Source: Tagaea sp.
GTDB lineage: Bacteria > Pseudomonadota > Alphaproteobacteria > CACIAM-22H2
Assembly: GCA_965279525.1 (NCBI GenBank)
Contig: CBDIIB010000003.1
Coordinates: forward strand, 128,001 to 192,000
Length of the DNA stretch: 64,000 nt
Reading direction: 5' to 3'
Below are positions 11,008 to 35,598 of the stretch, in pieces. Made by a program: the position numbers and the translations under genes. The notes beneath the pieces are model-generated. The model worked only from the letters and a program-made list of their open reading frames with translations, did no database searches and was not told the origin of the DNA. The first letter of the stretch is position 1. Each line of letters begins with the position of its first letter.

Positions 11008-13347
11008 ATGGCTTTCGGCAAGGCGCAGACTGGGGGGCGATATGAGGACGTGGCGTTGCTGCGGGGAAAGGGGCGCTTCATCGATGATATGCACCTTCCC
11101 GGCACGCTTCACGTCGCATTTGTCCGCAGCGCTATGGCGCACGCACTTGTCCGAAATGTGGACGTTGTGGCCGCGAAGATGGCCCCTGGTGTCCATGCCG
11201 TTCTGACTTATGACGATATCAGGCCGCTTCTCACTCAGGATCGAATTGCGCTCGCGATGCCGTCCGGTGCCATACGCTTTGTCGTTGATCCTCCGGTGCT
11301 TGCATCGGCCGAGACTTGCTATGTGGGGGAACCGATCGCACTGGTCGTCGCCGAGAGCCGATCGTTGGCAGAGGATGCCGCGGCATTGGTGGATGTCGAG
11401 TACGAAGCATTGCCGGCGGTTGTCGATATTGTTGCCGGCATTGCAAGCGGGTCTCCGAAGGCGAGGGTTGACTGCCCTGACAACGTGGTTGCGGAAGCGG
11501 TCATCAAGTATGGCGACGTCGATGCTGCGTTCGCGCGGGCGGCGCATGTCCTTACCGAAGAACTCCTGCTGCACAAGGGTGGCGGTCACTCCATGGAGCC
11601 GCGCGGCATCATCGCGCGATACGACGAGGGGACTGGATCGCTGGATGTTTGGGACAGCACCCAGATGCCTCATCGAAATAAGGCCGTTCTGATCCAGATG
11701 CTGGGCCTGACCGAAAGTCAGGTTCGTGTCGTCGCCCCCGATGTCGGCGGAGCGTTTGGACCGAAGGCCGTTTTTCACCCGGAAGAGCTTGCAGTTCCTG
11801 CAGCGTCGATGCTGCTTGGCTATCCATTGAAATGGATCGAGGACCGGCGCGAGAACTTTCAGGCGACCGTCATGGAACGCGACCAGCATTGGTCGGTCGA
11901 AATGGCGCTCGACAAGGAAGGCAAGGTTCTCGCTATCAGGGGCCACCTCATCCATGACCACGGTGCCTGCACGCCGTATGGCAGTTCGATTCCCCAGAAT
12001 GCCGCGACGAATCTGATCGGTTCCTACGTGCTGCCGGCGTACGAAATGAAGGTAACGTCCTGTTTGACAAACATGGTGCCGACCGCCGCGACGCGCGGCG
12101 CCGGTCGGCCGCAAGGAACGTATGTGATGGAACGCATGCTCGACCGAGCTGCGGGAACTGTCGGAATAACGCGCGATGAAGTTCGTCGCCGAAATCTCAT
12201 ACGGGCGGATCAGATGCCATTCACGACACCGGTCCCGATGCGTGACGGCAGAATGATGACGTACGATAGCGGGGACTATCCCGAGTGCCAGAGGCGCGTC
12301 TTGGAGGCTGCCGGCTGGGCCGACTTTCCCGCTCGGCAGGCTGCGGCGCGCGAGAAGGGTCGTTGGATTGGAATTGGACTCTCGAATTACGTGGAATTGA
12401 CCGGGCGGGGACCATTCGAGAGTGCATCGGTCCGGATCGGCCCGTCCGGCCGCGTGCTCGTGACGAGCGGCGCCACCGCGCAGGGTCAGGGCACCAAGTC
12501 CATGCTTGCCGCGATTGTCGGTCGGGAACTCGGCATAGGCGAAGAACTGATCGACGTGATGGTCGGGGATACGAGCTTCAGTCCTTTGGGGATTGGCGCT
12601 TTCGCGAGCCGTCAGACCGTGACGGCGGGAAACTCGGTTTATGCCGCAGCGGTTCAGGTTGCTGAGAAGGCGAAGAAAATTGCATCGGTGCTCCTCGAGG
12701 CAGCGCCGGAGGATATCGAGCTGCGCGACGGCGTTGCCCATGTGCGGGGCGTGCGCCAGATGTCGCGTTCATTGGGCGAGTTGGCAAAGGCCGTGAATGG
12801 CTCGATCGGTTTTGCGCTTCCCGGCGGCATTGCACCCGGCTTGTACGCCGCATCGGACTTCCAGGTTGCAGGTACGCCATTTGCGTGTGGTGCCCATGTC
12901 GCCGAAGTCGAGGTGGACTGCGAAACGGGCGGGGTCGAACTCACGAGGTATGTCGCGATCCATGATTGCGGACGCGTCATCAACCCTCAGATCGTCGAGG
13001 GGCAGGTTCTCGGGGCGATCGTCCATGGCATAGGCAACGCGCTATATGAATGGATGCGATACGACGACCGTGGGCAGCCGCTGACGGTGACGTACGGCGA
13101 CTACCTGCTGCCGGCATCGGATCTGATCCCGCGCATCGAGTTGTTGCACATGGAGTCGCCAAGCCCGCTGAATCCGCTTGGCGTAAAGGGTGCCGCAGAG
13201 GGCGGGACGATTGCTGCGCCTGCCGCGATCGTATCTGCGATCGAGGATGCCCTGAAGCCGCTCGGCATTCGGATTCTGGATTTGCCCGTGACGCCTGTGC
13301 GCCTTCGGGCTCTGATCGAAGCGGCTCAGCCAGGGCACCGGGGATGA
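11008..13347 (+). CDS. Xanthine dehydrogenase family molybdopterin-binding large subunit (L1)
   Basis: EDVALLRGKGRFIDD, DVGGAFGPK, active-site loop TRGAGRPQ, catalytic Glu in VKGAAEGG; start uncertain (10948/10993/11008). Confidence 0.93.
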   Translation: MAFGKAQTGGRYEDVALLRGKGRFIDDMHLPGTLHVAFVRSAMAHALVRNVDVVAAKMAPGVHAVLTYDDIRPLLTQDRIALAMPSGAIRFVVDPPVLASAETCYVGEPIALVVAESRSLAEDAAALVDVEYEALPAVVDIVAGIASGSPKARVDCPDNVVAEAVIKYGDVDAAFARAAHVLTEELLLHKGGGHSMEPRGIIARYDEGTGSLDVWDSTQMPHRNKAVLIQMLGLTESQVRVVAPDVGGAFGPKAVFHPEELAVPAASMLLGYPLKWIEDRRENFQATVMERDQHWSVEMALDKEGKVLAIRGHLIHDHGACTPYGSSIPQNAATNLIGSYVLPAYEMKVTSCLTNMVPTAATRGAGRPQGTYVMERMLDRAAGTVGITRDEVRRRNLIRADQMPFTTPVPMRDGRMMTYDSGDYPECQRRVLEAAGWADFPARQAAAREKGRWIGIGLSNYVELTGRGPFESASVRIGPSGRVLVTSGATAQGQGTKSMLAAIVGRELGIGEELIDVMVGDTSFSPLGIGAFASRQTVTAGNSVYAAAVQVAEKAKKIASVLLEAAPEDIELRDGVAHVRGVRQMSRSLGELAKAVNGSIGFALPGGIAPGLYAASDFQVAGTPFACGAHVAEVEVDCETGGVELTRYVAIHDCGRVINPQIVEGQVLGAIVHGIGNALYEWMRYDDRGQPLTVTYGDYLLPASDLIPRIELLHMESPSPLNPLGVKGAAEGGTIAAPAAIVSAIEDALKPLGIRILDLPVTPVRLRALIEAAQPGHRG

Positions 13348-23571: not shown

Positions 23572-25929
23572 TCAGTTTACTACAGACTGCGGTTCGGCTT
23601 CAGTCCACGACGGCACCCCGTGGATCGCCGCGAGAACGACGCTGGGTGTAACCGGGCTGCCGGAAAGTTGGACGCCGAACGGTGTCAACGCGTCCTCGAT
23701 CGCCGAGACGATGGAGGCGCTCATCGGTATCACACCCGCTTCGCCAACGCCTTTTATGCCGAGAGGGTTGAGCGGCGTCGGACTGCTGAGGTGCACGATA
23801 CCAATCGGCGGAATTTCGGTTGCTGTCGGCAGCAAATAGTCCGCGAAATTCGTTGTGAGCGGCTGGCCGTCTGCGCCGTACCTCATCCACTCGAACAGGG
23901 TGTTTCCGATGCCGTGCACGATTCCACCAACGATCTGACCATCCACAATGCGCGGATTGATCATTCTGCCGCAGTCATGTGCAAACGTGACATGCCGAAC
24001 TACCACTCCACCCGTTCCGGTATCGACCTCAACCTCGACGACAGCGCAGCCATTGGCGTAGGTCATCGGATCGATCTGAACATGCTCGGTGACAGATAGC
24101 GACGGGCCGTGATCGTCAAGCATTCGATATCCTGGAAGGCCGCTGACTTGCCGGGCCAGATCGGCAAACGTGATGCGGCGATCTGTGCCGGCGATGAAAA
24201 TGGCGTTGCCCTCAACTGTTAAGTCGCTGCGAGGCGCTTCCAAGAGCTTTGTCGCGAGATTCAGAATCCTGTCCCGCAATTTGCCGGCAGCGACATTTGC
24301 AGAAGAGCCGGCCATCACAGCTTGTCGGCTGTTGAACCCGCCAATCCCTTGGGAAATTGCGCCGGTGTCTCCGGCCACGACAGAAATGTTGCTCATATCG
24401 CCGCCCAGTTCATCAGCCACGATCTGGGCTAGCATCGTCTTGGTGCTTTGGCCCATAGCGGCGGCACCGGTTGCGACCAGGACCTTTCCACTACGATCGA
24501 TCTTTACGGATACGGATTCGTAAGGGCCGCGGCCGGTCGCCTCGACATAGTTTGCGATTCCGATACCGATATAGCGACCCTCGCCAAGTGCCTTCTTCTG
24601 GCGCGCTCGAAACCCAGCCCAGTCTGCCTTCTCAATCGCCGTCGACATTGTGGCTGGATAATCGCCGGTATCCAATGAAACGGGTACGCCGCCACGTGTC
24701 GCGAACGGTCGGCCGAATGGCATCTGACTTGGCCGAACGAGGTTGCGGCGCCGGACTTCGGCTCGGTCGAGATCGAGCTCTCGCGCCACTCGATCAAGCA
24801 GGCGCTCCATCACGAAAACGCCTTGAGGCTGACCTGCACCGCGCACCGGAGTGACTGGCACCAGGTTTGTAAGTGCAGCCAGTCCCTCGATCGAGTACGC
24901 AGGAATATCGTAGGCCAACGGAAGGGCCGACATAGCACCCTGGATCACGGTCAGCCCACGTGCCGTATAGGCACCGTGATCATGTATGGCTTTGCCGCGC
25001 ACGCCCAATATCCGCGCATTTCGATCGACTGCAATTTCTACGTCCCAGTACTGATCGCGTTCCTGAGTCGTCGCCACGAAGTGCTCGTGGCGGTCTTCGA
25101 TCCATTTGACGGGTTCTCCAAGAAGTAGCGCGACGAGTGGGATGATCAGATCTTCGGGATAGAAGATCAGCTTTGGCCCGAAGCCGCCGCCGACGTCGGG
25201 CGTGATCACACGCACGCGATCATCGGAACGTCCGAGCAGATCGCAAATATGACGAAGCGCCGTGTGTGGTGTTTGGGTTGACGACCACAGCGTCAGGACA
25301 TCGTCATGCGGGTTATGCACCGCAGCGACTCCCCGGCATTCGATGGGATGCGCCCCGCCACGATGCTGCCATAGGGCTTCCCTGAAAACGTGGGCAGCGT
25401 TCGAAAACGCCCGGTCAATATCGCCGTAGCCGAGCGTGAACTTCGCTGCAAGATTATGCGGGTGGCCTCGGTGCACCCTCGGTGCGCCTTCGGTCAGGGC
25501 CGAGCGGCAGTCGGCGACAGCCGATAGCGGCTCGTACTCGATCTCGACGAGAGTGGCAGCGTCTTCGGCAACACCGCGACTTTCAGCGACAACGACGGCG
25601 ATCGCTTCGCCGACGTATGTCACTTCACGGTCGGCCAGAATTGGCCGGTGTACATCAAGCTGGTAGGCCGGGCTTGGAAGTGCGACGACCAGTCGATCGT
25701 CCGTCAGGTGGGGGCGCAAATCATCCATAGTCAGGACGGCTCGGACGCCTGGATAGGTCCGCGCCGCTTTAACGTCGATCCGGCCTATCGCCGCATGCGC
25801 ATGCGGGCTTCTTACAAAGGCGATTTCCAGCATTCCGGGGAGCTTTATGTCGTCCACGAAACGACCCGCTCCGCGCAACAATGGGGGGTCTTCGACGCGA
25901 GGTACAGACTGGCCTACGAGCTTATCCAT
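23572..25929 (-). CDS. Xanthine dehydrogenase family molybdopterin-binding large subunit (L2)
   Basis: VGQSVPRVEDPPLLRG, DVGGGFGPK, loop VRGAGQPQ, IKGVGEAG. Confidence 0.94.
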   Translation of the reverse strand: MDKLVGQSVPRVEDPPLLRGAGRFVDDIKLPGMLEIAFVRSPHAHAAIGRIDVKAARTYPGVRAVLTMDDLRPHLTDDRLVVALPSPAYQLDVHRPILADREVTYVGEAIAVVVAESRGVAEDAATLVEIEYEPLSAVADCRSALTEGAPRVHRGHPHNLAAKFTLGYGDIDRAFSNAAHVFREALWQHRGGAHPIECRGVAAVHNPHDDVLTLWSSTQTPHTALRHICDLLGRSDDRVRVITPDVGGGFGPKLIFYPEDLIIPLVALLLGEPVKWIEDRHEHFVATTQERDQYWDVEIAVDRNARILGVRGKAIHDHGAYTARGLTVIQGAMSALPLAYDIPAYSIEGLAALTNLVPVTPVRGAGQPQGVFVMERLLDRVARELDLDRAEVRRRNLVRPSQMPFGRPFATRGGVPVSLDTGDYPATMSTAIEKADWAGFRARQKKALGEGRYIGIGIANYVEATGRGPYESVSVKIDRSGKVLVATGAAAMGQSTKTMLAQIVADELGGDMSNISVVAGDTGAISQGIGGFNSRQAVMAGSSANVAAGKLRDRILNLATKLLEAPRSDLTVEGNAIFIAGTDRRITFADLARQVSGLPGYRMLDDHGPSLSVTEHVQIDPMTYANGCAVVEVEVDTGTGGVVVRHVTFAHDCGRMINPRIVDGQIVGGIVHGIGNTLFEWMRYGADGQPLTTNFADYLLPTATEIPPIGIVHLSSPTPLNPLGIKGVGEAGVIPMSASIVSAIEDALTPFGVQLSGSPVTPSVVLAAIHGVPSWTEAEPQSVVN

Positions 25930-27142: not shown

Positions 27143-28123
27143 ATGACCGCAAAAGGCACGATCGCAATCGTTGGCGCCGGGCTGATGGGGACGGCAATCG
27201 CAGCATTGTGTGCCGCCCGAGGCTATAGCGTTGGCCTTTATGATCAGAGCCAGAAGAGCCGTGACGGGTTTGCGGACCGTGCGCGACCCATCCTCGGTCA
27301 TCTCGCGGAATCAAGGAGTGCTCAGGACGAAATCCTTGGCCGAATCAAGTTGCACGATTCACTCGAGAATTGCGTCAGGGGAGCGACGCTTGTCCATGAG
27401 ATCATACATGAAGATCTTGAGGCGAAGCGTGCACTCTTCCATCAGCTTGATGCGATTTGCGCCGAAGATGTAATGCTCGCAACCAACACCTCATCGTTTC
27501 TGCTGAGTGAGATTTGCGCGACTGTTCCCGGACGACGGAGAGTGATCGGCATTCACTATGTGGCGCCGGCGCATTTGATCCAGGCTGTGGAAATCATTAC
27601 GGCTGACTTTACGGCGCCAGAGTTGGTCGAGCGCGCGCTAAAGTTCCTTGAATCCATTGATCACGTTGGAATCGTTTGCAGGGAGTGTCCGGGATTCATA
27701 ATCAATAGAATCCAGTATGCCTTGAAAGCAGAAGTGCAGAAAATCTTGGAAGAGGGTGTGTCTTCGGCACAGGACATCGATACAGCTGTGCGGCTGAGCA
27801 TTGGGCCAAGACTAGCACTTTGGGGCCCTATGATGCAGGAGGATCTGTCGACCAGCAAAAAGACCGTGCTGGCTGTGATGGAATACATACACAATGCGAC
27901 CGGCAGTTCCCACTTCGCACCGTCGCCAGTCCTGAAGCAATTGGCTGAGAGCGGTCAGATAGGTGCATCGGCAGGAGCAGGTTGGTATCGCTGGGATGGA
28001 AGTAATGAGCAGCGTGTACGAGAGCGCGATCGGCAACTTAGCGCACTGCTTGATTGGCTGAAAAAGAATGATCGAGTGAATGCTCTCGGTGCAATCGGCG
28101 AGAACAAGTTGGTCAAGTCGTAG
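27143..28123 (+). CDS. 3-hydroxyacyl-CoA dehydrogenase family protein
   Basis: GAGLMG, EDLEAK, ATNTSS, catalytic His/Glu in IHYVAP...VEI, PGFIINR. Confidence 0.9.
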   Translation: MTAKGTIAIVGAGLMGTAIAALCAARGYSVGLYDQSQKSRDGFADRARPILGHLAESRSAQDEILGRIKLHDSLENCVRGATLVHEIIHEDLEAKRALFHQLDAICAEDVMLATNTSSFLLSEICATVPGRRRVIGIHYVAPAHLIQAVEIITADFTAPELVERALKFLESIDHVGIVCRECPGFIINRIQYALKAEVQKILEEGVSSAQDIDTAVRLSIGPRLALWGPMMQEDLSTSKKTVLAVMEYIHNATGSSHFAPSPVLKQLAESGQIGASAGAGWYRWDGSNEQRVRERDRQLSALLDWLKKNDRVNALGAIGENKLVKS

Positions 28124-28404
28124 CGCTAGGCGGGCGTGCAACGCCGAATAAAGAAAATTGAACGGCTGGCCAAAAGTTCGCCAAGGAAAGTAACTTAGAA
28201 TGCAGGGTCTAGTCGTGGCAGCGGTGCTTTATGTAATGTTTTTGTTTGTACTGTTCTATTATTTTGCGACGACAAATTCTGCCTTCTCACCTGGTTCGTA
28301 TTGAGTGTTTCCAGCCGGCACAACTTCACTGTTCGTTGAGTGGAATTATCCGTGCTAAGCGATCTTCCAATGGGTAACCCGAATGGAACTGCCGTTGAGA
28401 TTTT

Positions 28405-28569
28405 ATGATCAAACTTGTGCACACTGCAAAGTTCAAGCACGGCAGATCTGATGTGATACGCGTCGTGCAGGATCTGATGGCCACAGTTGGGCTGTGTGCA
28501 ATTCTCTGGCTTGTGCTGATCTATTTCAGTGCGATGCCAGATTCGATCCTCCCAATCGGTTCACTTTGA
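28405..28569 (+). CDS. Putative 54-aa single-pass membrane protein
   Basis: Manual translation MIKLVHTAKFKHGRSDVIRVVQDLMATVGLCAILWLVLIYFSAMPDSILPIGSL; below ORF-track cutoff. Confidence 0.4.
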   Translation: MIKLVHTAKFKHGRSDVIRVVQDLMATVGLCAILWLVLIYFSAMPDSILPIGSL

Positions 28570-28670
28570 TTGATTTCGCTAGCAGCTTGTTCCCTGTTGG
28601 CGTTCATCACGCCGCATTACACTTTCGGGTGTGAAGGCCCAGTCAGTCGCTTCAATGGACCCGTCAATTG

Positions 28671-28712
28671 ATAAGTTGGACTAATCTGTCCTAGTAGATC
28701 AAGGTCCCTAAT
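28671..28712 (+). promoter_or_regulatory. Candidate LysR-controlled promoter of the exported cassette
   Basis: ATAAG-N5-CTAAT (T-N11-A) plus GAT-N8-CTAAT at the same offsets as the site beside the LysR start (33995). Confidence 0.55.
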
Positions 28713-28769
28713 AAAAAATCGGAAGAGATACTAGGTTCGTCGCGAGCTGATACAGCAAGCGAGGGACTC

Positions 28770-29861
28770 ATGACTTCCATCGACATTCGATTTCTTAAAC
28801 TGCAACTTCTGCTGGGTTCCGCCCTGTTGATTTCGACGCCGGCGTTCGCTCAACAGACGGGCAGAGCTGAACCGCTGGTCATCCAGAATCAGGGCAGCTT
28901 CGCGGTCGGCGGATCACTGACGACCGCGCCCGGCACGTTCGATCCTCTCAAGCCGCTTCAGCCGGCCGGGCAGACGTTTCGCGGCGACCATCTGTACGCG
29001 TTCTACCAGGTGCCGATGAACGCCCGCGGCCTGCCCGTCGTGATGTGGCACGGAGCCGGGCAGTTCTCCAAGACCTGGGAGACGACGGCCGACGGGCGCG
29101 AGGGCTTCCAGAACATCTTTCTGCGCCGACGCTTCACGACCTATCTCATCGACCAGCCGCGGCGGGGAAATGCTGGCCGCAGCACGCTCGAAGCGACGAT
29201 TAGGCCGACACCCGACGAACAGTTCTGGTTCGGCCAGTTCCGCGTTGGCATCTGGCCGAACTATTTCGACGGCGTCCAGTTCGACCGCAAGCCGGAGACG
29301 CTCGACCAGTATTTCCGTGCGATGACCCCCAACACCGGTCCCTATGACGCAATCCTGATCTCGGACGGCGTTGCCGCACTGTTCGCCAAAATCGGCCCCG
29401 GCATCCTGATGACCCACTCGCAGAGCGGCGGCCCGGGATGGCTCGCCGCGATGAAGTCGCCGAACGTCAAGGCGATCGTAGCATTCGAGCCCGGTAGCGG
29501 CTTCGTCTTCCCGCAAGGCGAACTGCCGAGTCCGGTGCCGACCGCTTTCGACACGCTCGAAGGCGTGCCGGTTCCGATGTCGGACTTTCTGGCCCTGACG
29601 AAGCTGCCGATCGTCATCTTCTACGGCGACAACATCCCGGCGACGCCGACGCAAGTACCGACGCAGGATGCCTGGCGCGGCCGGCTGGAGATGGCGCGAC
29701 TCTGGCGGGACACCGTCAACCGACACGGGGGTCAGGTGAGCGTGGTTCATCTGCCGGAGATCGGCATCCGCGGCAACACGCATTTCCCGTTCTCGGACCT
29801 GAACAACGTCGAGATAGCCGACCAGGTCTCGAAGTTCCTCGCCGAGAAGAAGCTGGATTGA
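28770..29861 (+). CDS. Exported alpha/beta fold hydrolase
   Basis: Signal peptide ending AFA-QQ, DQPRRG, nucleophile THSQSG, GNTHFPF. Confidence 0.88.
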   Translation: MTSIDIRFLKLQLLLGSALLISTPAFAQQTGRAEPLVIQNQGSFAVGGSLTTAPGTFDPLKPLQPAGQTFRGDHLYAFYQVPMNARGLPVVMWHGAGQFSKTWETTADGREGFQNIFLRRRFTTYLIDQPRRGNAGRSTLEATIRPTPDEQFWFGQFRVGIWPNYFDGVQFDRKPETLDQYFRAMTPNTGPYDAILISDGVAALFAKIGPGILMTHSQSGGPGWLAAMKSPNVKAIVAFEPGSGFVFPQGELPSPVPTAFDTLEGVPVPMSDFLALTKLPIVIFYGDNIPATPTQVPTQDAWRGRLEMARLWRDTVNRHGGQVSVVHLPEIGIRGNTHFPFSDLNNVEIADQVSKFLAEKKLD

Positions 29862-29933
29862 CTTGGCGTATCGCGTCCGACGGGAATCCGGATTTTGCCA
29901 ATTACCAATCCCCGATCAATGAGGAGACTTGAG

Positions 29934-30362
29934 TTGAAGAAGGTCACCAGGAATTTGCTCGTCGCGGCCAGTCTGCTTCTAACTGGAGGAGTACCGACTT
30001 TGGCCCATGCCCAGAGCCAGACACCCTCTGCGTCGGGTGCAGCACCGGCCCAACCGCAGTCGCGCGCCCAACAACTGATGGGTGACATTGCGCCCAAGCT
30101 CGCCGAGCTTACCGATGATGTACTGTTCGGCGATGTCTGGGAACGGCCGGGTCTCGCCAAGCGCGACCGAAGCCTGATTACGGTCGCAGCACTCATCGCA
30201 CTCAACCGTCCGGACCAGCTTCGTTCCCACATTGCGCGCGCACGGAGCAATGGCGTGACCGAGCCGGAAATCGTGGAAGCGATCACCCAGCTTGCCTTCT
30301 ACGCGGGCTGGCCCAACGCGATCACCGCGGTCGGCGTCGCCCGCGAGGTTTTCAAGAATTGA
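29934..30362 (+). CDS. Carboxymuconolactone decarboxylase (CMD/AhpD-like) family protein with signal peptide
   Basis: LFGDVWERPGLAKRDRSLITVAAL, LAFYAGWP; TTG start after GAGGAG. Confidence 0.9.
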   Translation: MKKVTRNLLVAASLLLTGGVPTLAHAQSQTPSASGAAPAQPQSRAQQLMGDIAPKLAELTDDVLFGDVWERPGLAKRDRSLITVAALIALNRPDQLRSHIARARSNGVTEPEIVEAITQLAFYAGWPNAITAVGVAREVFKN

Positions 30363-30408
30363 CGGGACAACCGTGATTGCCCGGAAATCGGCAAATTGAA
30401 AGAGTGAG

Positions 30409-30879
30409 ATGAAATCCAATGTCGCAGTAACCGCTTTTGCCGCTCTCTGTGCCTCAGCGGTGTTAGCCCAATCCGATCCCATGATCGCTGTCACGCGTGC
30501 GGGATCGCAACCGTCCACTGTCGGCCCTACCGAGAACTTCACCGGATCGGTGCGCGTCGACTCCCGCTTTCAGGGAACCGCACCTGCCCGCATCGGCGGT
30601 GCGACCGTCACCTTCGAGCCCGGCGCCCGTACGGCTTGGCATAGCCATCCGCTCGGCCAAACGCTGATCGTCACGACGGGCGTCGGGCTTGTTCAGGGAT
30701 GGGGCGGCCCCATCCAGGAGATTAGGCCGGGCGATATTGTGTGGATCCCGCCGGGCGTGAAGCACTGGCACGGTGCCGGTGCTAGCAACGGCATGTCCCA
30801 TATCGCCTTCTCGGAATCGCTCGACGGCCGGACGGTCGAGTGGATGGAGAAGGTCACGGACGAACAGTATCGACGATAG
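30409..30879 (+). CDS. Cupin domain protein with signal peptide
   Basis: [35 protein letters not shown]. Confidence 0.92.
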
Positions 30880-30916
30880 CGAGTACCAGTTCCGCGAAAT
30901 CCGAGTGAGGGAATTC

Positions 30917-31399
30917 ATGTTGAAGTTTTCAAAGTCGATCGCCTTGGCCAGCTTCGTCGCATGCGCTTTGCTCGTCGTGGGGTGGCAAGCGCATGCCGAG
31001 AGCAATCGGGTTACATTTCCGGAGATCGACAAGCTCGAGCACTACACCACTGTCCGGCGTGGTAACGTGACGGAGCACATCATGACGACACCGGCGGCGA
31101 TCGAGGCGGTGAAGAACCGCCAGCCGGTGCCGGCGGGTACGCATTTCGTGCTCGTCGACTATCGCGAAGGCAAGGTGTTCCGCTACTTCGTCATGGAGAA
31201 AGGCGCGAACTGGGGTGCCGATTACGACGAGCGCCGTCGCACCGGCGATTGGCAGTTCCAGTGGTTCTGGCCCGACCGGAGCATCAACACCAGCGAGAAC
31301 ACGGCCCGCTGCCAGTCCTGTCACCAGAGCCAGGCAGCGAGCGAATACCTGTACACCGGCTATCGCATTCCGCGCTTCGACGGAAAGCCCGTCGAGTAG
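30917..31399 (+). CDS. Cytochrome P460/c'-beta family c-type cytochrome
   Basis: Signal peptide, P.GT strand, VMEK, GDWQF, C-terminal CQSCH heme motif. Confidence 0.82.
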   Translation: MLKFSKSIALASFVACALLVVGWQAHAESNRVTFPEIDKLEHYTTVRRGNVTEHIMTTPAAIEAVKNRQPVPAGTHFVLVDYREGKVFRYFVMEKGANWGADYDERRRTGDWQFQWFWPDRSINTSENTARCQSCHQSQAASEYLYTGYRIPRFDGKPVE

Positions 31400-31417
31400 G
31401 CGAGGGAGGATGCTGTC

Positions 31418-32125
31418 ATGAACCGGTTTTTCCTCTCCCGACTTTGGCTCGATGCTCTTGCGGCCGGCCTGCTGCTTGTCGGGTTCGCCTACTGGTGGCT
31501 GGGCAATCTGGTCCATGAGGTGGCGGGAACGGCGATGTTCGTGCTCCTCATCGCGCACAACTTCTTCAACCGGCGTTGGTACGGGGGGATCCCGGCAACG
31601 CGGCGCGAGCCCCGGAGCGTGTTCAATCTCGGCGTCACTTTCGTGCTGCTTGCCGCCATGCTGGCGCTGCTGGTCACGAGCGTGCTGATCTCGAACGTGC
31701 TGTCGACCTTTCTGCCGGCCTGGGGCGGCTTTACCGTGCGGCAGATCCATACCCTCGCCGCATACTGGGTGCTGGTGGTCGTGGCGGTCCATCTCGGCCT
31801 GCGCTGGCCGATGCTGATGGGCGTGGCGCGAAACCTGTTCGGAATCCGGAAGCCGAGCGCGTTGCGAACGTTCGTTCTACGCGCGATTGCGTTCGGGATT
31901 GCACTTCAGGGCATCTGGAGCGGGACCGTGCTCGGCCTCGGCGGGAAGCTCACCATGCGGATGACGTTGGACTGGTGGAACTTCGAGGAATCGGTCGCGG
32001 GGTTCTTCGTCCATTGCGCGGCATTCGCCGGACTCGTCATTGTCGTCACATATACCGGCTTGAAGCTGATCGAGTCCGGCAACCGGTGGAGAATGCGCAA
32101 TTTAGGCAGGAGGGAGGTACGATGA
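31418..32125 (+). CDS. DUF4405-like membrane protein (putative b-heme binding)
   Basis: Polytopic, with His in HEVAG, AHNFFN, QIHTLAAYW, VHLGL. Confidence 0.8.
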   Translation: MNRFFLSRLWLDALAAGLLLVGFAYWWLGNLVHEVAGTAMFVLLIAHNFFNRRWYGGIPATRREPRSVFNLGVTFVLLAAMLALLVTSVLISNVLSTFLPAWGGFTVRQIHTLAAYWVLVVVAVHLGLRWPMLMGVARNLFGIRKPSALRTFVLRAIAFGIALQGIWSGTVLGLGGKLTMRMTLDWWNFEESVAGFFVHCAAFAGLVIVVTYTGLKLIESGNRWRMRNLGRREVR

Positions 32126-33111
32126 GTGACGCTTCTCGTCGGGAGTGCCTTCTCCTGCCGCTGCTAATGGTGCTGCCCGGAATCGCCATGGCCCAGCAGT
32201 CCGGCGGCAACGAAAAGCGATACGCCCGTCTCGGTGCCGACAGCACGATAGCCGAACTGCTCGCGCATCCCGCGTTCGAGGGGTTCGCCCTTCGCCTTCT
32301 GCCGTGGGACGACCGGGATTATGACCTGCGGACGAAGCTCGGCGCTCTCGGAAGCCTGCTTCCGTACCACAGCCATGTCGATACGGTCGCCACGGTCGGC
32401 GCTCTCAACCGCATGATCGACGATGCGAGCCAGGGTCGGCGGATATTCTTCGACATCTATTCGGATGCGGAGAAGCGCGAGGACCCTACCAAGTCCCATG
32501 CCGGCCTTTTCTTTTCGCGTGGAAAGCCCAATGCGCCCTTCGCAGTCATCGCGCCTGGTGGCGGCTTCGCCTATGTCGGCTCGGTACACGAGGGTTTCCC
32601 CTATGCCACAGAGATTTGCCGGGCGGGACTGAACGCCTTCGTGCTGAAATACCGGGCGGGCAAAGGCAGTGCCGTGGCGACCCAGGACCTCGCTGCCGCA
32701 ATTGGCTTCATCTTCCAGAACGCGGCCGCTCTTGGTGTCGAAACGCGCGGCTATTCGCTGTGGGGCAGTTCGGCCGGCGCCCGCATGGCGGCGTCCATCG
32801 GCAGCCACGGCGTGGCTCGGTTCGGCGGGCCCGAGCTTCCCAAGCCTTCAGCCGTGGTGATGGCCTACACCGCGCATGCCGAACGCTCTGTCGCAGAGCC
32901 GCCGACCTTCGCCGTCGTCGGCGAACGGGATGGCATTTCTCCGCCATCCGCGATGGAACAACGCGTTGCTGCCCTTCGTCGTGCCGGGATCGAGGTCGAA
33001 TATCGCGTCTATCCTGGTGTCGGCCACGGCTTCGGGCCCGGCATCGGAACGAGTGCCGAAGGCTGGATCGGCGATGCGATCCGCTTCTGGGAGCGGCATC
33101 AGCCCCGGTAG
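32122..33111 (+). CDS. Exported alpha/beta hydrolase (esterase/dienelactone hydrolase-like)
   Basis: ATG 32122 after GGAGG; SRRECL Tat-like leader; PGGGF, GSSAG, GERD, GHGF triad motifs. Confidence 0.87.
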   Translation: MSDASRRECLLLPLLMVLPGIAMAQQSGGNEKRYARLGADSTIAELLAHPAFEGFALRLLPWDDRDYDLRTKLGALGSLLPYHSHVDTVATVGALNRMIDDASQGRRIFFDIYSDAEKREDPTKSHAGLFFSRGKPNAPFAVIAPGGGFAYVGSVHEGFPYATEICRAGLNAFVLKYRAGKGSAVATQDLAAAIGFIFQNAAALGVETRGYSLWGSSAGARMAASIGSHGVARFGGPELPKPSAVVMAYTAHAERSVAEPPTFAVVGERDGISPPSAMEQRVAALRRAGIEVEYRVYPGVGHGFGPGIGTSAEGWIGDAIRFWERHQPR

Positions 33112-33992
33112 CGCAGCGCGTCGATCACGACGGAAAGCGCCGGTGATGAATGTCGTCGACTTGGGTAGTAGAGGTGATAGCCCGGAAACGGTGCACACCA
33201 GTCTTCGAGAACCCGCACGAGCCGTCCAGCGCGGATATGCGGGAGAGCATGGTCTTCCGGCATGTAGGCGAGGCCGAGCCCATCCAGCGCCGAAGCCAGT
33301 CGCATGGCGAGACTGTTGAACACCAATTGCCCGTCGGAGCGTACCTTGATCGCCTGACTGTCCTTCTCGAGACCCCACGCGAATATTTCGCCATGTGTGG
33401 GCATCCGGGACGAGATGGAGTTGTGGGCGGTCAGATCCTGCGGCGTTCGTGGCGTTCCGTACCGCTTGAAATATCGAGGCGACCCGACGATGGCCATGCG
33501 CATGTCGGGACCTATCCGGACCGCGATCATGTCCTTGGCGACCCGTTCGCCCATCCGGACGCCGGCGTCAAAGCCCGCCGCAACGATGTCGACGAGACCG
33601 TAATCGACGATGATCTCGACCTTGATATCCGGATGATCCGGCAGGAACCGGCGGAGGGCTGGCTGCAGGACCGAGATCGCCGGATGCTCGCCGGCCGTGA
33701 TGCGTATCGTGCCCGCCGCCTTGCCGCGTAGTTCGCCGAGGGCCGAGATCTCTGCGACGATCTCGTCGAAGCGCGGCCCGACCGTTTCGAGCAGTCTGAT
33801 GCCGGCCTCCGTCGGCGCGACGCTGCGCGTCGTACGCGTCAGCAGCCGCAGCTTGAGGCGTTCTTCGAGCCCTTTGATGGTCTGGCTAAGCGCCGACTGC
33901 GAAACCCCCAGCTTGGCGCCGGCTTTGGTGAAGCTGCGCTCCTTCGCCACCATGGCGAACGCAGCGAGATCGTTGAAGTTGGGCTGAACCAT
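33099..33992 (-). CDS. LysR family transcriptional regulator
   Basis: SFTKAGAKLGVSQSALSQTI, LTRTTRSVAPTEAG, YHLYYPSRR. Confidence 0.95.
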   Translation of the reverse strand: MVQPNFNDLAAFAMVAKERSFTKAGAKLGVSQSALSQTIKGLEERLKLRLLTRTTRSVAPTEAGIRLLETVGPRFDEIVAEISALGELRGKAAGTIRITAGEHPAISVLQPALRRFLPDHPDIKVEIIVDYGLVDIVAAGFDAGVRMGERVAKDMIAVRIGPDMRMAIVGSPRYFKRYGTPRTPQDLTAHNSISSRMPTHGEIFAWGLEKDSQAIKVRSDGQLVFNSLAMRLASALDGLGLAYMPEDHALPHIRAGRLVRVLEDWCAPFPGYHLYYPSRRHSSPALSVVIDALRYRG

Positions 33993-33994
33993 TG

Positions 33995-34036
33995 ATTAGA
34001 GAACCTTATTAGAATGATCGGATTATAGCGTCCAAT
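33995..34036 (+). promoter_or_regulatory. LysR binding site abutting the LysR start codon
   Basis: ATTAG-N5-CTTAT (T-N11-A), then GAT-N8-CCAAT. Confidence 0.55.
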
Positions 34037-34077
34037 CACGTGTGTGACCACGTTCCAATAAGGTCTGTCTCAGTATC

Positions 34078-34152
34078 ACGCGTCGGCGGGGTGTTGGCAA
34101 AACACTGTTGCTGGCCGATTTCAATGAGAAGTCGCTTCGGGCTGCGGGAGAG
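34078..34152 (+). pseudogene. Short relic of an SDR oxidoreductase gene
   Basis: Reads TRRRGVGKTLLLADFNEKSLRAAGE, resembling the alphaB-betaB part of an SDR Rossmann fold; no start or continuation. Confidence 0.45.
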
Positions 34153-34238
34153 CCGTTCCCGCCCGAACCTCGTCAAGCTGCGCTGGCTATCCAACAACGG
34201 CTCCTATTCGGTGGCGATCCGCTTAGACGGGTCTCCCG

Positions 34239-34643
34239 TCAGGCAGGGCCATCCAACTTCCACATCAGTTCGCGTTGTTCGCCGTCGGACCGCCGTGGTG
34301 GGATCAATACGAGGTGGTCATTGCGGAATTCTACTTTCCGGATCTGCTCGCCGCCGATCCGCTCCGTCACAGCGGCTGCATCGACGCGAGTTATCAGCCT
34401 GTCGCCTTCTATCCGGAAGTTCCCGCAATACGACGCGTAAGCACGTTTCTCCCCTCCCGGAATGGAGGGTCGGCCATCGCAGATGACGGCCATCATTCGG
34501 CCGGCTTCGCTGAGAATAAGCCGTCCCATTGGGATCGGGCCATACGGAGGGCGCACACTCCGCCCGTCTGCGTCGACGGCTGTCGCCGAGATCAGGCGCC
34601 ATGTGCCTTGAACTTGCTCAGGGCTTATCGTTTCGGCTGCCAT
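34239..34643 (-). CDS. Lipocalin-like domain protein
   Basis: GTWRLIS, PYGPIPMGRL, YASYCG; AAGGAG RBS upstream. Confidence 0.82.
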   Translation of the reverse strand: MAAETISPEQVQGTWRLISATAVDADGRSVRPPYGPIPMGRLILSEAGRMMAVICDGRPSIPGGEKRAYASYCGNFRIEGDRLITRVDAAAVTERIGGEQIRKVEFRNDHLVLIPPRRSDGEQRELMWKLDGPA

Positions 34644-34678
34644 TCCTCTGCTCCTTCGCCATCATCTCTGATTTTCCT

Positions 34679-34695
34679 ATTTGGACCGACCTTTT
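34679..34695. promoter_or_regulatory. Candidate FadR-type operator, module C
   Basis: ATTTGGACCGACCTTTT, resembling TGGTCNGACCA. Confidence 0.55.
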
Positions 34696-34842
34696 AAGTT
34701 AGGGACATTTGGAGCATGATGGCAAACACCACATAATATCAGCAAGATAAAAGGGTTGAAGGGACGGACGCATGTTGCGGGGCCGTGGAGCGAGTGATAA
34801 ATCTGTCAAAGATCGTACTTTTACGGGCAGCAGTGGGCGAAG

Positions 34843-35598
34843 ATGCGCAAGAGCCAAAAGATCGATTTGAACAATGTTGCGGGCCCAAAGAATCTCGCGG
34901 CTGAATCGACATCTGTGTCCGTTGCGCTGGCCCGGAAGCTTCTTGACGCCATCGTCCAGGGCGGCATCGCGGTGGGAAGTTCGTTGCCGAGCGAACGAGA
35001 ACTGATGACCAAGTATCAGGTCAGTCGCGGGACGGTTCGCGAAGCCCTGAGCGTTTTGAGCGCCCAGAACCTGATACAGGTCAAACGGGGTCGAGGCGGT
35101 GGTTCCTTCATATCCAGCCCTACTTCCCATTCGGTGGTGCAGTCGCTGAACCTGTTCATCAAAGGCCAAGATATCCGCTTCCTCGATCTGGCCTTCGCCC
35201 GTGAGGCGATTGAACCCGCTGCCGCAGCGCAAGCCGCAGTGTCGCGAAGTCGGGAGAAGCTGGAAGAGTTGTGGCAGCTATGTACGGAATGCGAACGCAA
35301 GGTCGACGACGCCCAGCGTTTCGTTGAAACAAATCTCAGGTGGCATCTGGTCGTCGCGGAGGCGAGCAACAACCCGCTATTCGTTGCATTTCTCACGTCG
35401 ATCTCTACGGCACTTCATACCGCAACGAACTTCGAAGAATTCGATATCAAGATCCGCAAAGAGGTCGTCGGCGTGCACTGGCAGATCTTCGAGGCGATTC
35501 GGGTCGGTGACCCGGACGCGGCTCGCCGCCGTATGACACGTCATGTGTCGGCATATAGTCAGCAGCTTTCGTCAATCAATCTGGCAGCAAAAACGTAG
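34843..35598 (+). CDS. FadR/GntR family transcriptional regulator
   Basis: LPSERELMTKYQVSRGTVREAL, RGRGGGSF, FCD domain. Confidence 0.94.
   Translation: MRKSQKIDLNNVAGPKNLAAESTSVSVALARKLLDAIVQGGIAVGSSLPSERELMTKYQVSRGTVREALSVLSAQNLIQVKRGRGGGSFISSPTSHSVVQSLNLFIKGQDIRFLDLAFAREAIEPAAAAQAAVSRSREKLEELWQLCTECERKVDDAQRFVETNLRWHLVVAEASNNPLFVAFLTSISTALHTATNFEEFDIKIRKEVVGVHWQIFEAIRVGDPDAARRRMTRHVSAYSQQLSSINLAAKT

Follow-up and report, generated by a model that had tools for sequence, protein, structure and literature searches.

A horizontally mobile, LysR-associated operon of export-type proteins around a haem c/DUF4405 gene pair

What might an operon do that sets esterases, a CMD-family protein and a cupin beside a haem c protein and a polytopic membrane protein, and whose soluble products, by their sequence, look exported? 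Such a set occurs in the window, as we call the whole stretch of 64,000 nucleotides of Tagaea sp. DNA that was analysed; six ORFs, all on the + strand, fill positions 28770-33111 exactly. We consider the operon, with a probability of about 45%, to be a small periplasmic detoxification or transformation kit with a quinol-linked cytochrome b/c'-beta core, possibly peroxidase-like. The features are:

28142..28769: upstream intergenic region, 628 nt, AT-richer, 5' of g1; presumed promoter/regulatory region
28770..29861, + strand: g1, putatively exported carboxylesterase of the SulE / esterase-713 / BDI_1566 family, 363 aa
29895..30362, + strand: g2, putatively exported CMD-family protein, Cys-free; start at TTG 29895 or ATG 29919
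30409..30879, + strand: g3, putatively exported metal-binding cupin near the Mn-dependent cupin 'hydroxynitrile lyase' GtHNL, 156 aa
30917..31399, + strand: g4, putatively exported mono-haem c protein of the P460/c'-beta superfamily, predicted c'-beta type, 160 aa
31418..32125, + strand: g5, DUF4405 six-helix membrane protein, predicted two-haem cytochrome b, 235 aa
32122..33111, + strand: g6, putatively exported (Tat-like) esterase of the Abhydrolase_3 / BD-FAE type, 329 aa; its start overlaps the g5 stop
33099..33992, - strand: LysR-family regulator gene (Pfam HTH_1 and LysR_substrate), convergent with the operon

The genes from g1 to g5 are separated by gaps of 33, 46, 37 and 18 nt, g5 and g6 share a 4-nt ATGA overlap, and a purine-rich stretch lies 5-12 nt 5' of each of the six starts. 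The LysR gene, which overlaps the end of g6 by 13 nt, belongs with the gene set and is an addition to the preliminary description of this DNA: 63 of 80 related loci have a homologue no more than 5 kb from the haem gene, either convergent downstream or co-directional upstream, and six of eight annotated plasmid loci also have one, the other two lacking it.

These 80 loci are the best 80 of 156 confirmed relatives, drawn from 185,579 species genomes; as the closest relatives they are phylogenetically clumped, many coming from Bosea and Rhizobium, and counts over them are thus not independent events. The preliminary description had treated the six genes as one system, and the neighbourhood survey does find the combination conserved: the gene set recurs across genera, which we judge to be more than chance, and the six-gene operon recurs on plasmids of soil and root bacteria. 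The gene order of the window, LysR gene included, is found in six of the 80 loci; around the haem gene, four accessory families (g1-type esterase in 59 loci, cupin in 55, CMD in 50 and g6-type esterase in 24, each within 5 kb) occur on the same strand and with short gaps in Alpha-, Beta- and Gammaproteobacteria, in 44 different arrangements of this shell. Since the accessory genes differ between loci, the six genes do not constitute one fixed pathway. The 7-kb flanks of the loci additionally hold aldo/keto reductases (52), a Tat-signal hydrolase (28) and an exported flavodoxin-like protein (15); among the 26 flanking ORFs scanned in the window there is no aldo/keto reductase. The operon is horizontally mobile: homologues 70-86% identical occur in Bosea, Rhizobium, Sinorhizobium, Azospirillum and Variovorax, many of them on plasmids, 60 related genomes yielded no orthologue (the top match, self excluded, has 35% identity and covers part of the protein), and the gene set lies within a block of lower GC than its replicon.

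The invariant part is the pair of g4 and g5. A DUF4405 gene lies directly 3' of the haem c gene in 80/80 loci, and in the 76 that allowed delimitation of both ORFs the intergenic gap ranges from -4 to 58 nt; in plasmid records, a DUF4405 match stands beside 37 of the 40 haem-gene matches listed, and these pairs extend to the Bacillota (Priestia and Peribacillus, at 38-41% identity). Over 56 sequence sets the pairwise identities of g4 and g5 correlate with r = 0.86; the remaining gene pairs reach 0.42-0.58. A complex prediction for the two proteins scores 0.51 (0.50-0.53 between runs; best of three controls 0.07), which falls into a weak band: among 157 solved complexes 116 passed the mark, as did 2 of 215 mismatched pairs, 18 of these complexes and both passing mismatches scoring no higher than 0.60, and the g4/g5 run used our own alignments and included three haems, unlike the calibration. 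At least 85% of the contacts agree between runs, with a partner pLDDT of at least 90. We think it likely that the two core proteins are one electron-transfer couple. If so, the locus would indicate the membrane-bound redox partner that has been missing for one class of haem protein. Literature searches returned no paper on the haem c/DUF4405 pairing and none with both 'cytochrome P460' and 'DUF4405', nor, among the papers listed, one where 'cytochrome P460' occurs together with 'carboxymuconolactone decarboxylase' or 'cupin', in agreement with the earlier statement that no functional description of the combination was known.

For g5, a polytopic protein with four histidines resembling haem ligands had been proposed, and this holds. 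It belongs to DUF4405 (PF14358, 37.5 bits for a cut-off of 26.7), is the sole DUF4405 gene of this genome, and contains five histidines in total, four of which, H33, H47, H111 and H125, are present in 79, 78, 79 and 79 of 79 sequences; they form two H-x13-H pairs, one in helix 2 and one in helix 4 of an AF2 model with six long helices (pLDDT 79.5). The K/R-rich segments (loops 48-67 and 128-150, and the C-terminus) suggest that the N-terminus is inside and that H33 and H111 face the periplasm. A purified DUF4405 protein from an Oscillospiraceae bacterium gave haem b spectra and has, according to its authors, six helices and four central histidines (PMC11334425). Searched with the g5 model, Foldseek returned nothing at E <= 0.001, and VIA-align gave haem b proteins at Z 8.4-8.9, no better than unrelated helical bundles.

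The soluble partner g4 had been called a P460-like cytochrome. This stands for the Pfam family (Cytochrome_P460, PF16694; 49 bits for a cut-off of 27) but not for the type of cofactor. A single CxxCH motif, C-Q-S-C-H, spans C132-H136, and the best solved relative by profile is the cytochrome c'-beta of N. europaea (7S5O, E 4.9e-08), true P460 entries reaching only ~0.06. R48 aligns with the distal Arg46 of the N. europaea protein, the position of the cross-link (L79, or F77 in the HMMER alignment) is never Lys, and the aligned carboxylate position holds F91, neither Lys nor carboxylate, in 25/25 rows; the mapping of Arg46, Met79 and Ala109 onto g4 comes from one HMMER alignment and our own re-anchoring and is not structure-based. 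R48 is invariant in alignments A1 and A2 (25/25 rows in A2) and found in 52 of the 56 rows of A4. With the cross-linking Lys absent and the distal Arg kept, g4 is, by sequence, of the c'-beta type and not a true P460, and lacking this defining residue it is unlikely to oxidise hydroxylamine. An AF2 model of g4 alone is poor (pLDDT 63.9).

Export signals had been claimed for all five soluble proteins, and the quoted A-x-A sites are in fact found, as judged by a home-made heuristic of hydrophobicity and A-x-A motif in place of a trained predictor. By this heuristic all five have a K/R-bearing N-region, a 10-residue core with a Kyte-Doolittle mean of 2.3-3.0, and an A-x-A site; the signal-like segment of g1 ends in A-F-A ahead of Q-Q, that of g4 in H-A ahead of E. 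The N-terminus of g6 carries the Tat-like twin-arginine motif S-R-R-E-C-L, which in the form S-R-R-[E/D]-[C/W]-L is shared with several Bosea homologues. Among homologues from the related loci (the window's own row included), an N-terminal hydrophobic core occurs in 60/61 for g1, 41/46 for g2, 39/53 for g3 and 18/26 for g6, and 78/79 for g4 are signal-peptide-like; start codons were picked by rule, and a wrong start may explain some of the misses. For a few cupins encoded outside the operon, the short cytoplasmic form is evident. The genome encodes CcmE and TatC.

Of the shell proteins, g1 matches Pfam Abhydrolase_6 weakly, and by sequence 4Q34 (E 7.7e-121), the SulE entries (~1e-63) and esterase 713 (1QLW, 3e-34); its S217, E240 and H338, kept in 61, 61 and 59 of 61 sequences, have the spacing of Ser209, Glu232 and His333 in SulE, which has a predicted signal peptide of its own; methyl or ethyl esters of aromatic acids are hydrolysed by relatives of g1 (PMC10356948). 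The second esterase, g6, hits Abhydrolase_3, BD-FAE and Peptidase_S9 (E 6e-08 to 7e-07) and solved carboxylesterases weakly, and keeps S217 (in a G-S-S-A-G turn), D270 and H302 in 26, 25 and 25 of 26 sequences. The g2 protein matches Pfam CMD at 84.4 bits and the PcaC equivalog TIGR02425 at 79 bits, under the latter's cut-off of 155.7, and among solved structures its best relative is 4G9Q, a tandem-CMD protein (3.8e-54); because g2 contains no Cys at all, and hence no CxxC, it is not an AhpD-type thiol enzyme, as had been stated. The cupin g3 (Pfam Cupin_2) matches the entire NCBIfam model NF049940, '(R)-mandelonitrile lyase', over residues 28-156 (192.9 bits for a cut-off of 140), and PDB 4BIF (7.3e-53) from residue 27 onward, so that its first ~26 residues represent an added signal-like segment; it is close to the Mn-cupin GtHNL, with the metal ligands kept (H78, H80, Q84 and H119, in 53/53 sequences). 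At one related locus (L066), signal peptide, two CMD domains and cupin are fused in a single ORF of 401 aa.

Taken together, the preferred reading would run as follows. The invariant core would be a two-protein redox couple of DUF4405 protein and c'-beta-type haem c. The former may be a cytochrome b of six helices in which two haems stack across the membrane, one held by H47/H125 towards the cytoplasmic side and the other by H33/H111 towards the periplasmic side, the latter a five-coordinate haem c with a distal arginine cap and no lysine cross-link. We infer that both proteins carry their haems and touch one another, and that electrons from the quinol pool travel over both b haems and reach the haem c in the periplasm, where they would re-reduce a high-valent haem made by a small oxidant, peroxide being the leading candidate. 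The earlier proposal of a membrane cytochrome b linked to a ligand-binding haem c is consistent with the adjacency, the co-divergence and the His pairs, though the haem c is not predicted to be P460-type. With H2O2 the c'-beta of N. europaea gives a ferryl species, and its oxidation of guaiacol has a kcat of 20 per s, chemistry to which its Arg cap is thought to contribute; M. capsulatus c'-beta has a potential of -205 mV (PMC11928373). At potentials this low, quinol could not keep the haem ferrous, and the proposal therefore works only through a ferric/ferryl cycle, the core pair then acting as a quinol-driven, peroxidase-like enzyme. We favour this reductive, peroxidase-like direction tentatively, at somewhat under even odds. 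The variable shell (one or two exported serine carboxylesterases, the Cys-free CMD protein and the metal cupin, the last two probably acting together, given that they are fused in some genomes) would act on a compound of ester type, aromatic or xenobiotic, and on the reactive products formed from it, and many other genomes encode cytoplasmic aldo/keto reductases close by; that the whole cassette serves one shared class of substrates is a more doubtful step.

Electrons might also flow the opposite way, with the haem c protein oxidising a small hydroxylamine-like, sulfur or phenolic substrate and DUF4405 passing the electrons to quinone, as part of an oxidising dehydrogenase. The pairing evidence fits this equally, the superfamily has enzymes that oxidise haem-bound NH2OH, and the low potentials of c'-beta and P460 proteins (-205 to -424 mV) favour donation to quinone (PMC11928373). 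However, none of the cross-link-deficient P460 variants and none of the three c'-beta proteins tabulated in that source is active on NH2OH, g4 has F91 where a Lys or carboxylate would align, and neither the eight annotated loci nor the window flanks contain nitrogen-cycle genes, which makes this direction unlikely. We consider it more improbable that c'-beta binds periplasmic NO or CO to buffer the gas or to signal, with DUF4405 keeping the haem reduced or relaying a signal and the remaining genes being unrelated co-regulated stress genes. Cytochromes c' are usually proposed to bind NO and to protect against nitrosative stress (PMC11928373), and an adenylate/guanylate cyclase gene adjoins the pair in S. 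meliloti pRmeGR4a and R. johnstonii pRL11; yet the cyclase-like cluster is confined to a minority of loci (6/80), no nor, nir or other NO genes are near in the eight annotated loci or the window flanks, and the invariant distal R48, together with many conserved polar residues, suggests a polar pocket and not that of the hydrophobic, Phe-capped gas binders.

The shell raises two further alternatives. The six genes might be neighbours by chance within a mosaic accessory region, with the haem c/DUF4405 pair as the only real unit. This would account for the variable presence and order of the shell, its modest divergence correlation with the core (the r = 0.42-0.58 above) and the location of the window within a mosaic block of low GC that is crowded with unrelated catabolic genes; it is similarly improbable, for the same four families recur in 24-59 of the 80 loci on one strand with short gaps, nearly all in-operon copies have export signals where outside copies can be cytoplasmic, and the LysR gene travels with the set. 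Least probable of all, and quite unlikely, is a role in handling cyanohydrins and aromatic aldehydes, where the esterases would free cyanohydrins from cyanogenic esters or glycosides of plants, the cupin would cleave them, the aldehyde would be removed by reductases or by aldehyde oxidoreductases of the periplasm, and the haem protein would handle cyanide or take electrons from the oxidoreductase. Many of the hosts are root-associated, g3 passes the '(R)-mandelonitrile lyase' cut-off and resembles GtHNL down to the metal ligands, aldo/keto reductases are frequent in the flanks, and PaoC-like Mo-enzymes occur in 5/80 loci, PaoABC-like genes directly adjoining the pair in R. tropici and lying near it in A. 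fabrum and Rhizobium sp. T1473. Against this, the lyase activity of GtHNL-like cupins came from biocatalysis screens, and we know of no natural role for them; the eight annotated loci have no nitrilase, rhodanese or cyanase, and the cupin is missing from 25/80 loci, the haem pair from none.

As to expression, a simple sigma-70 scan of the + strand of the upstream region 28142..28769 (GC ~0.51) gives no site and an Rfam search of it no match, so that a promoter is placed there by position only. Promoter-like sites do lie 5' of the LysR gene, at 34050-34022 and 34100-34072 on the - strand. The upstream region also contains a putative ORF of 54 aa (28405-28569, + strand) with a single hydrophobic segment.

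The gene set consists of a core, the haem c gene g4 and the DUF4405 gene g5, and a shell of four genes for predicted exported enzymes (g1, g2, g3 and g6), all six with open reading frames exactly where a preliminary description had placed a six-gene cassette on the + strand. Successive genes are separated by 33, 46, 37 and 18 nt, g5 and g6 overlap in an ATGA, and a purine-rich stretch precedes each of the six start codons.

Genes of the operon and the convergent regulator gene, with the family matches of their products
28770-33111, + strand: the operon, with its six genes in the following order
g1, + strand: 363 aa, serine carboxylesterase of the SulE / esterase-713 / BDI_1566 family (4Q34, E 7.7e-121; SulE, ~1e-63)
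g2, + strand: CMD-family protein with 0 Cys; nearest solved structure the tandem-CMD protein 4G9Q (3.8e-54)
g3, + strand: cupin; NCBIfam NF049940 '(R)-mandelonitrile lyase' at 192.9 bits against a cut-off of 140; residues 27-156 match 4BIF (E 7.3e-53)
g4, + strand: 160 aa, Pfam Cytochrome_P460 (PF16694) at 49 bits against a cut-off of 27; one CxxCH
g5, + strand: 235 aa, DUF4405 (PF14358) at 37.5 bits against a cut-off of 26.7
g6, + strand: esterase of the Abhydrolase_3 / BD-FAE type
33099-33992, - strand: LysR gene, convergent with the operon and overlapping g6 by 13 nt

A scan for a sigma-70-like site upstream of g1 and for a terminator after g6 found neither; it is crude for such organisms and carries no weight. 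The region upstream of g1 holds only short repeat matches at chance level, and an Rfam search over 27900-34900 returned nothing at E <= 0.1. Four sequencing runs contain the stretch, in low-depth, DNA-like contigs spanning the region, which have no bearing on expression or on where transcripts end. The AT-richer stretch before g1 contains a 54-aa open reading frame with one hydrophobic segment (28405-28569, + strand), and a Lipocalin_5-type gene (34239-34643, - strand) lies upstream of the LysR gene on the same strand; it is probably outside the module, since none of 80 related loci has a homologue passing a 50%-coverage filter.

The strongest regularity of the set is the pairing of g4 with g5. 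A survey of one genome per species (185,579 species) yielded 156 confirmed relatives of g4, the best 80 of which (61-86% identity) were examined, the window's proteins serving as tblastn queries to count their neighbors. Their hosts are Alphaproteobacteria (Bosea, Rhizobium, Microvirga, Mesorhizobium, Azospirillum, Roseomonas and others), Betaproteobacteria (Variovorax, Rhodoferax, Acidovorax) and the gammaproteobacterium Vreelandella. In all 80 of these best loci the haem gene is immediately followed, on the same strand, by the DUF4405 gene, with a gap of -4 to 58 nt in the 76 that have both reading frames delimited. Up to 5 kb from the haem gene, 63 of the 80 have LysR, 59 a g1-type esterase, 55 the cupin, 50 the CMD protein and 24 a g6-type esterase. 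The same families recur across genera in the best 80 of 156 relatives, so that the preliminary description is not refuted by a lack of conservation, one of the conditions that it had named. The order g1-g2-g3-g4-g5-g6 with a convergent LysR gene recurs in 6 of the 80 loci, among which there are 44 distinct arrangements. Pairwise identities of g4 and g5 correlate with r = 0.86, those of the other gene pairs with 0.42-0.58 (56 sequence sets), which argues that the core travels as a unit while the shell is reshuffled. Because the genomes are related to one another, there were fewer separate events than these counts suggest.

The same set appears under the annotators' own names on plasmids of S. 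meliloti (pRmeGR4a), Rhizobium sp. T1473 and A. pusense, and among the matches listed for plasmid records (54 matched), 37 of 40 have a DUF4405 match beside the g4 match, the other three being partial matches of 49% coverage. More distant haem genes (38-49% identity) are likewise followed by DUF4405 in R. johnstonii pRL11, Pseudosulfitobacter, A. fabrum pAt and R. tropici, and Bacillota also have a distant haem c / DUF4405 pair (Peribacillus, Priestia). The haem protein of the Bacillota is longer (252 aa), and the distant pairs of a Peribacillus muralis plasmid and of A. fabrum pAt (38-41% identity) adjoin genes for 'cyclophilin-like fold' proteins and an alpha/beta hydrolase. Two other P460-family genes of the source genome, in the loci L001 (G000:C5:1568668-1572087) and L003 (G000:C4:1050140-1053502), have no DUF4405 reading frame within about 1.5 kb; the pairing is thus specific to the clade of g4 and not family-wide. 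At L001 the P460-family protein (185 aa) is followed by a 110-aa reading frame that by eye resembles a secreted cupredoxin-type copper protein. The g4 family is small, with 685 representatives at E <= 0.001 and 40 at E <= 1e-30 among 1.84 billion.

The product of g4 had been described as a P460-like cytochrome, which holds for its Pfam family and its CxxCH and fails, by alignment, for the cross-link lysine and the distal carboxylate. In the available text of a 2025 review (PMC11928373), P460s are defined by a lysine-haem cross-link, in which Lys70, Lys78 or Lys106 attaches to the haem meso carbon where c'-beta proteins have Met79, Phe61 and Phe61; two active P460 enzymes have a distal carboxylate (Glu96 or Asp102) for proton relay, cross-link-deficient P460s are all inactive on hydroxylamine, and a Phe or Arg caps the haem iron on the distal side. 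The best solved match of the g4-clade profile is NeCP-beta, the cytochrome c'-beta of N. europaea (7S5O, E 4.9e-08), followed by those of M. capsulatus and T. thermophilus (6HIH, 7EAD), whereas the P460 entries 2JE2 and 8GAR reach E only about 0.06. Three alignments of g4 relatives, A1, A2 and the wider A4 (22, 25 and 56 rows, A4 extending down to 25% identity), allow the relevant positions to be followed. The haem c motif C132, C135, H136 is kept in 25 of 25 rows of A2 and in 54, 55 and 56 of the 56 rows of A4. With a numbering of 7S5O as chain index + 20, which reproduces the published Arg46 and Ala109, R48 of g4 aligns with the Arg46 cap and is kept in 22/22, 25/25 and 52/56 rows of A1, A2 and A4 (by alignment only), and the Ala109 column, the position of the distal carboxylate, is occupied by F91 in g4 and in all 25 rows of A2. 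The cross-link position falls on F77 in the HMMER alignment to 6HIH, or on L79 when anchored on a shared P-x-G turn (by alignment only); the latter placement is supported by the column in A4, which has Leu in 29 and Met in 21 of 56 rows and never Lys, matching Met79 of NeCP-beta. No row of A1 or A2 has a Lys within positions 70-85. The missing cross-link lysine and the aligned cap argue for g4 as a predicted Arg-capped cytochrome of the c'-beta type rather than a P460; the reading as a true P460 hydroxylamine oxidase was rejected, neither the lysine nor the carboxylate being present by alignment.

Like NeCP-beta, g4 combines a CxxCH haem c site with the lack of a cross-linking Lys, and the two share a V-M-E-K strand and a periplasmic location (in g4 by its predicted signal peptide); they differ in that the confident alignment covers the C-terminal half only, that g4 has Phe in place of Ala109, and that in its clade the haem gene is always followed by the DUF4405 gene in the loci examined. 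With cytochrome P460 of N. europaea and M. capsulatus it has in common the Pfam family, the predicted beta-sheet fold class, a single c-type haem and export, and is set apart from it by the Lys-haem cross-link of P460 and the distal carboxylate for NH2OH oxidation. An AF2 model of g4 alone, from a shallow alignment, is poor (pLDDT only 63.9).

In g5, four histidines are conserved almost without exception (H33, H111 and H125 in all 79 aligned sequences, H47 in 78), and a fifth, H199, in 67. Six long helices are present in the AF2 model (pLDDT 79.5), at 3-25, 30-55, 68-91, 104-128, 148-172 and 193-234; their limits would place both residues of each H-x13-H pair on a single helix, the second and the fourth. 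H-x13-H pairs on single helices are the pattern of two-haem cytochromes b. K and R abound in the loops 48-67 and 128-150 and at the C-terminus, and not in the remaining loops; this distribution points to an N-terminus on the inside, with H33 and H111 near the periplasm and H47 and H125 near the cytoplasm, and the conserved periplasmic loop carrying D185, W187 and F189 would then be a candidate docking site.

The related Ni_hydr_CYTB model scores 19.9 bits on g5, under its cut-off of 30.1. Foldseek of the g5 model against the PDB returns nothing at E <= 0.001, FdnI (1KQF_C) appearing with probability 0.87 and TM 0.42-0.45. VIA-align gives Z 8.9 for HyaC (rmsd 4.4, 120 aligned), 8.5 for cytochrome b561 (4.7, 156) and 8.4 for Dcytb (5.5, 169), values for haem b proteins that unrelated helical bundles reach as well. 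Haem b spectra were recorded for a purified DUF4405 protein of an Oscillospiraceae bacterium, and the available text of that study (PMC11334425) describes a layout of six helices with four central His, as in g5, which belongs to the same Pfam family, and proposes membrane electron transfer to an extracytoplasmic partner. Haem b binding is thus demonstrated for one distant DUF4405 member only, and g5 is a predicted cytochrome b. Its design, a membrane cytochrome b with a periplasmic partner, resembles MsrQ-MsrP and the published DUF4405 systems; in the latter, however, the contexts are ApbE with flavinylated partners or ferrosomes, whereas g5 is paired with a c-type haem protein, and eight annotated plasmid loci showed no apbE.

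A complex of g5 and mature g4, predicted from custom alignments with three haems included, scores 0.51 (0.50-0.53 across runs) against 0.07 for the best of three controls, in a set-up unlike that of the calibration; the runs share at least 85% of contacts, with a partner pLDDT of at least 90. In the calibration, 116 of 157 solved complexes attained the mark, as did 2 of 215 mismatched pairs; at scores of 0.60 or below only 18 of the 157 did so, together with both passing mismatches. The prediction lends weak support, a small push in favor, to a g5-g4 contact.

The five soluble proteins are probably all exported. They all pass a home-made rule that uses no trained predictor (K or R in the N-region, followed by a hydrophobic core and a small-x-small site), in agreement with the export signals and cleavage motifs quoted in the preliminary description, and g6 has a twin-arginine-like S-R-R-E-C-L. 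Among homologues at related loci, with starts assigned by rule and the window's own protein included in each count, the N-terminus has a hydrophobic core in 60/61 for g1, 41/46 for g2, 39/53 for g3 and 18/26 for g6, and is signal-peptide-like in 78/79 for g4. The g3 cupin and the g2 CMD protein carry N-terminal extensions that are absent from solved cytoplasmic relatives; some cupin copies outside the operon in other genomes are a short form without a signal. Attachment of c-type haem is necessarily extracytoplasmic, and the source genome encodes both CcmE and TatC. The end of the g4 signal peptide, residues 22-28 (G-W-Q-x-x-A-E), is unusually conserved: G22, A27 and E28 are invariant and W23 and Q24 nearly invariant in A1, and A27 and E28 are invariant in A2. 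This segment may do more than direct cleavage, for example as a retained anchor or in contact with the DUF4405 protein.

Of the shell enzymes, the esterase g1 keeps its triad S217/E240/H338 in 61, 61 and 59 of 61 sequences, with the serine in the context H-S-Q-S-G-G and without the classical G-x-S-x-G motif. As in SulE (available text of PMC10356948), the Ser-Glu-His triad has the same spacing, GxSxG is missing and an N-terminal signal peptide is present; no herbicide link is implied for g1, and relatives of g1 hydrolyse methyl and ethyl esters of aromatic compounds (PMC10356948). The catalytic residues S217/D270/H302 of g6 are intact, and its nearest relatives are feruloyl/acetyl-esterase-like families. 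The cupin g3 keeps its metal ligands H78, H80, Q84 and H119 in 53 of 53 sequences, in the same H-x-H...Q...H site as GtHNL, the Mn-dependent cupin of Granulicella tundricola (4BIF, 4UXA), from which it differs by about 26 extra, signal-peptide-like N-terminal residues and by being fused, in some genomes, behind two CMD domains. By score and metal ligands it belongs to the GtHNL-type family, and its lyase activity is predicted only. The product of g2 carries a full-length CMD domain; the earlier observation that it lacks CxxC and is not of the AhpD type stands, as it has no Cys at all, and an AhpD-type thiol peroxidase role is ruled out. Its score for PcaC (TIGR02425, 79 bits) lies under the equivalog cut-off of 155.7; g2 further differs from PcaC and AhpD in being predicted to be exported and in lying beside a cupin gene, not beside pca genes.

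Further genes recur in the 7-kb flanks: 52 of the 80 loci have aldo/keto reductases, 28 a third hydrolase with a Tat signal, 15 a flavodoxin-like protein with an N-terminal signal peptide (for example L066:13184-13807, in Vreelandella) and 5 a PaoC-like molybdo-enzyme; PaoABC-like genes adjoin the pair in R. tropici and are close by in A. fabrum and Rhizobium sp. T1473. Since published DUF4405 contexts include flavinylated flavodoxin-type partners (available text of PMC11334425), both kinds of partner may coexist in some loci. In the same Vreelandella locus (L066:3135-4340, and likewise in L068) a single 401-aa reading frame comprises a signal peptide, two CMD domains and the cupin; in L066 it lies directly 3' of PaoB/PaoC-like genes and 5' of a g1-type esterase gene. 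Such a natural fusion is a sign that the CMD and cupin proteins act jointly. On S. meliloti pRmeGR4a and R. johnstonii pRL11 a gene for a membrane adenylate/guanylate cyclase stands directly beside the pair or its LysR gene, and the cyclase cluster occurs in 6 of the 80 loci, which hints at a possible signalling link.

The module is LysR-linked, mobile and conserved, and the pairing of a c'-beta cytochrome with a four-His membrane protein is obligate in the best 80 of 156 loci. We take g4 and g5 to form a couple that transfers electrons between quinone pool and periplasm, with a probability of about 0.7. Electrons would pass from quinol through the b haems of g5 to the haem c of g4, and would there re-reduce the ferryl haem formed by peroxide; that the couple runs in this reductive, peroxidase-like direction has somewhat less than an even chance. 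NeCP-beta is converted by H2O2 to a ferryl species and oxidizes guaiacol with a kcat of 20 per s, reactions to which its Arg cap presumably contributes (available text of PMC11928373). A ferric/ferryl cycle is the thermodynamically workable version, because at the low potentials measured for c'-beta proteins (PMC11928373) the haem would not be kept ferrous by quinol. A less likely rival reading is the reverse electron direction, from haem c to the quinone pool. A further, less likely rival would have g4 bind or sense NO or CO.

For the shell, it is tentatively proposed, with the odds somewhat against it, that the esterases and the CMD-cupin unit, with cytoplasmic aldo/keto reductases in other genomes, process an aromatic or xenobiotic compound of the ester type together with the reactive products derived from it. 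This class of substrate is suggested by the aromatic esters cleaved by g1 relatives, the place of g6 near feruloyl/acetyl-esterase-like families and the recurrence of carbonyl-handling enzymes nearby. Handling of cyanohydrins or aldehydes is an unlikely rival to it, drawing on the family of g3 and the same carbonyl-handling neighbors; or, also unlikely, the shell may have no common function, a reading that the many arrangements of the set would suit. The fullest form of the preferred reading is that the Arg-capped c'-beta cytochrome and the DUF4405 protein constitute, as two subunits, a hitherto unrecognised quinol:peroxide (or quinol:small-oxidant) oxidoreductase in the cell envelope, and the exported CMD-cupin unit a second new periplasmic enzyme, acting on the products of the co-encoded aromatic-ester esterases; we consider it less likely than not.

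That a membrane cytochrome b can serve a periplasmic redox protein is known already (MsrQ-MsrP; DUF4405-flavoprotein contexts), and the members of the set are routinely annotated. A c'-beta-type cytochrome as the partner of DUF4405 and an exported CMD-cupin unit were not found described in open-access text, where no paper names 'cytochrome P460' together with 'DUF4405'; among the open-access matches listed, none joins cytochrome P460 with carboxymuconolactone decarboxylase or cupin, or cytochrome b561 with cytS, cytL and P460. The preliminary description had likewise known of no functional account of this combination, and open-access text yielded none. The available text of the P460/c'-beta review (PMC11928373) does not contain the words operon, gene cluster or neighbour, uses 'membrane' once, for the shuttling of NO by cytochrome c'-alpha, names no membrane partner, and gives the physiological role of any cytochrome c' as still undetermined. 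The strict cross-phylum pairing of one c'-beta clade with a predicted two-haem membrane cytochrome b makes this question testable at the bench. If the reading is true, cytochromes c'-beta gain a first physiological redox partner and function. The finding also points to a second kind of partner for DUF4405, hitherto linked to flavinylated partners and ferrosomes, and draws attention to the exported CMD-cupin unit, fused in some genomes.

The genomic setting is that of a mobile module. Sixty related genomes, 20 of them of the same genus, yielded no orthologue of g4, the best non-self match having 35% identity over residues 84-151; its nearest relatives, at 84-86% identity, are from Bosea. Many homologues lie on conjugative plasmids, and IS elements are found next to the gene set at two plasmid loci. 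Given its carriage on plasmids and islands of rhizosphere bacteria, the module may be of use to bacteria living close to roots or in contaminated soil. The window's contig (641 kb, 65.4% GC) includes a block of about 95 kb with 57-62% GC, within which the window lies and the cassette, at 59-64% GC, forms a higher-GC patch. Of the genes that flank the operon in the window, those for Mo-enzymes and CoA-transferases were rejected as parts of the module, as they do not recur in related loci, with the exception of the PaoC-like enzyme (5 of 80). The low-GC block (window 1-54000; G000:C3 about 90-185 kb) looks like a large acquired island and is dense with catabolic genes: two stand-alone large subunits of the xanthine-dehydrogenase family (10948-13347 and 23572-25929), CoA-transferases, an acyl-CoA dehydrogenase, BKACE, MmgE/PrpD and parts of TRAP/TTT-type transport systems.
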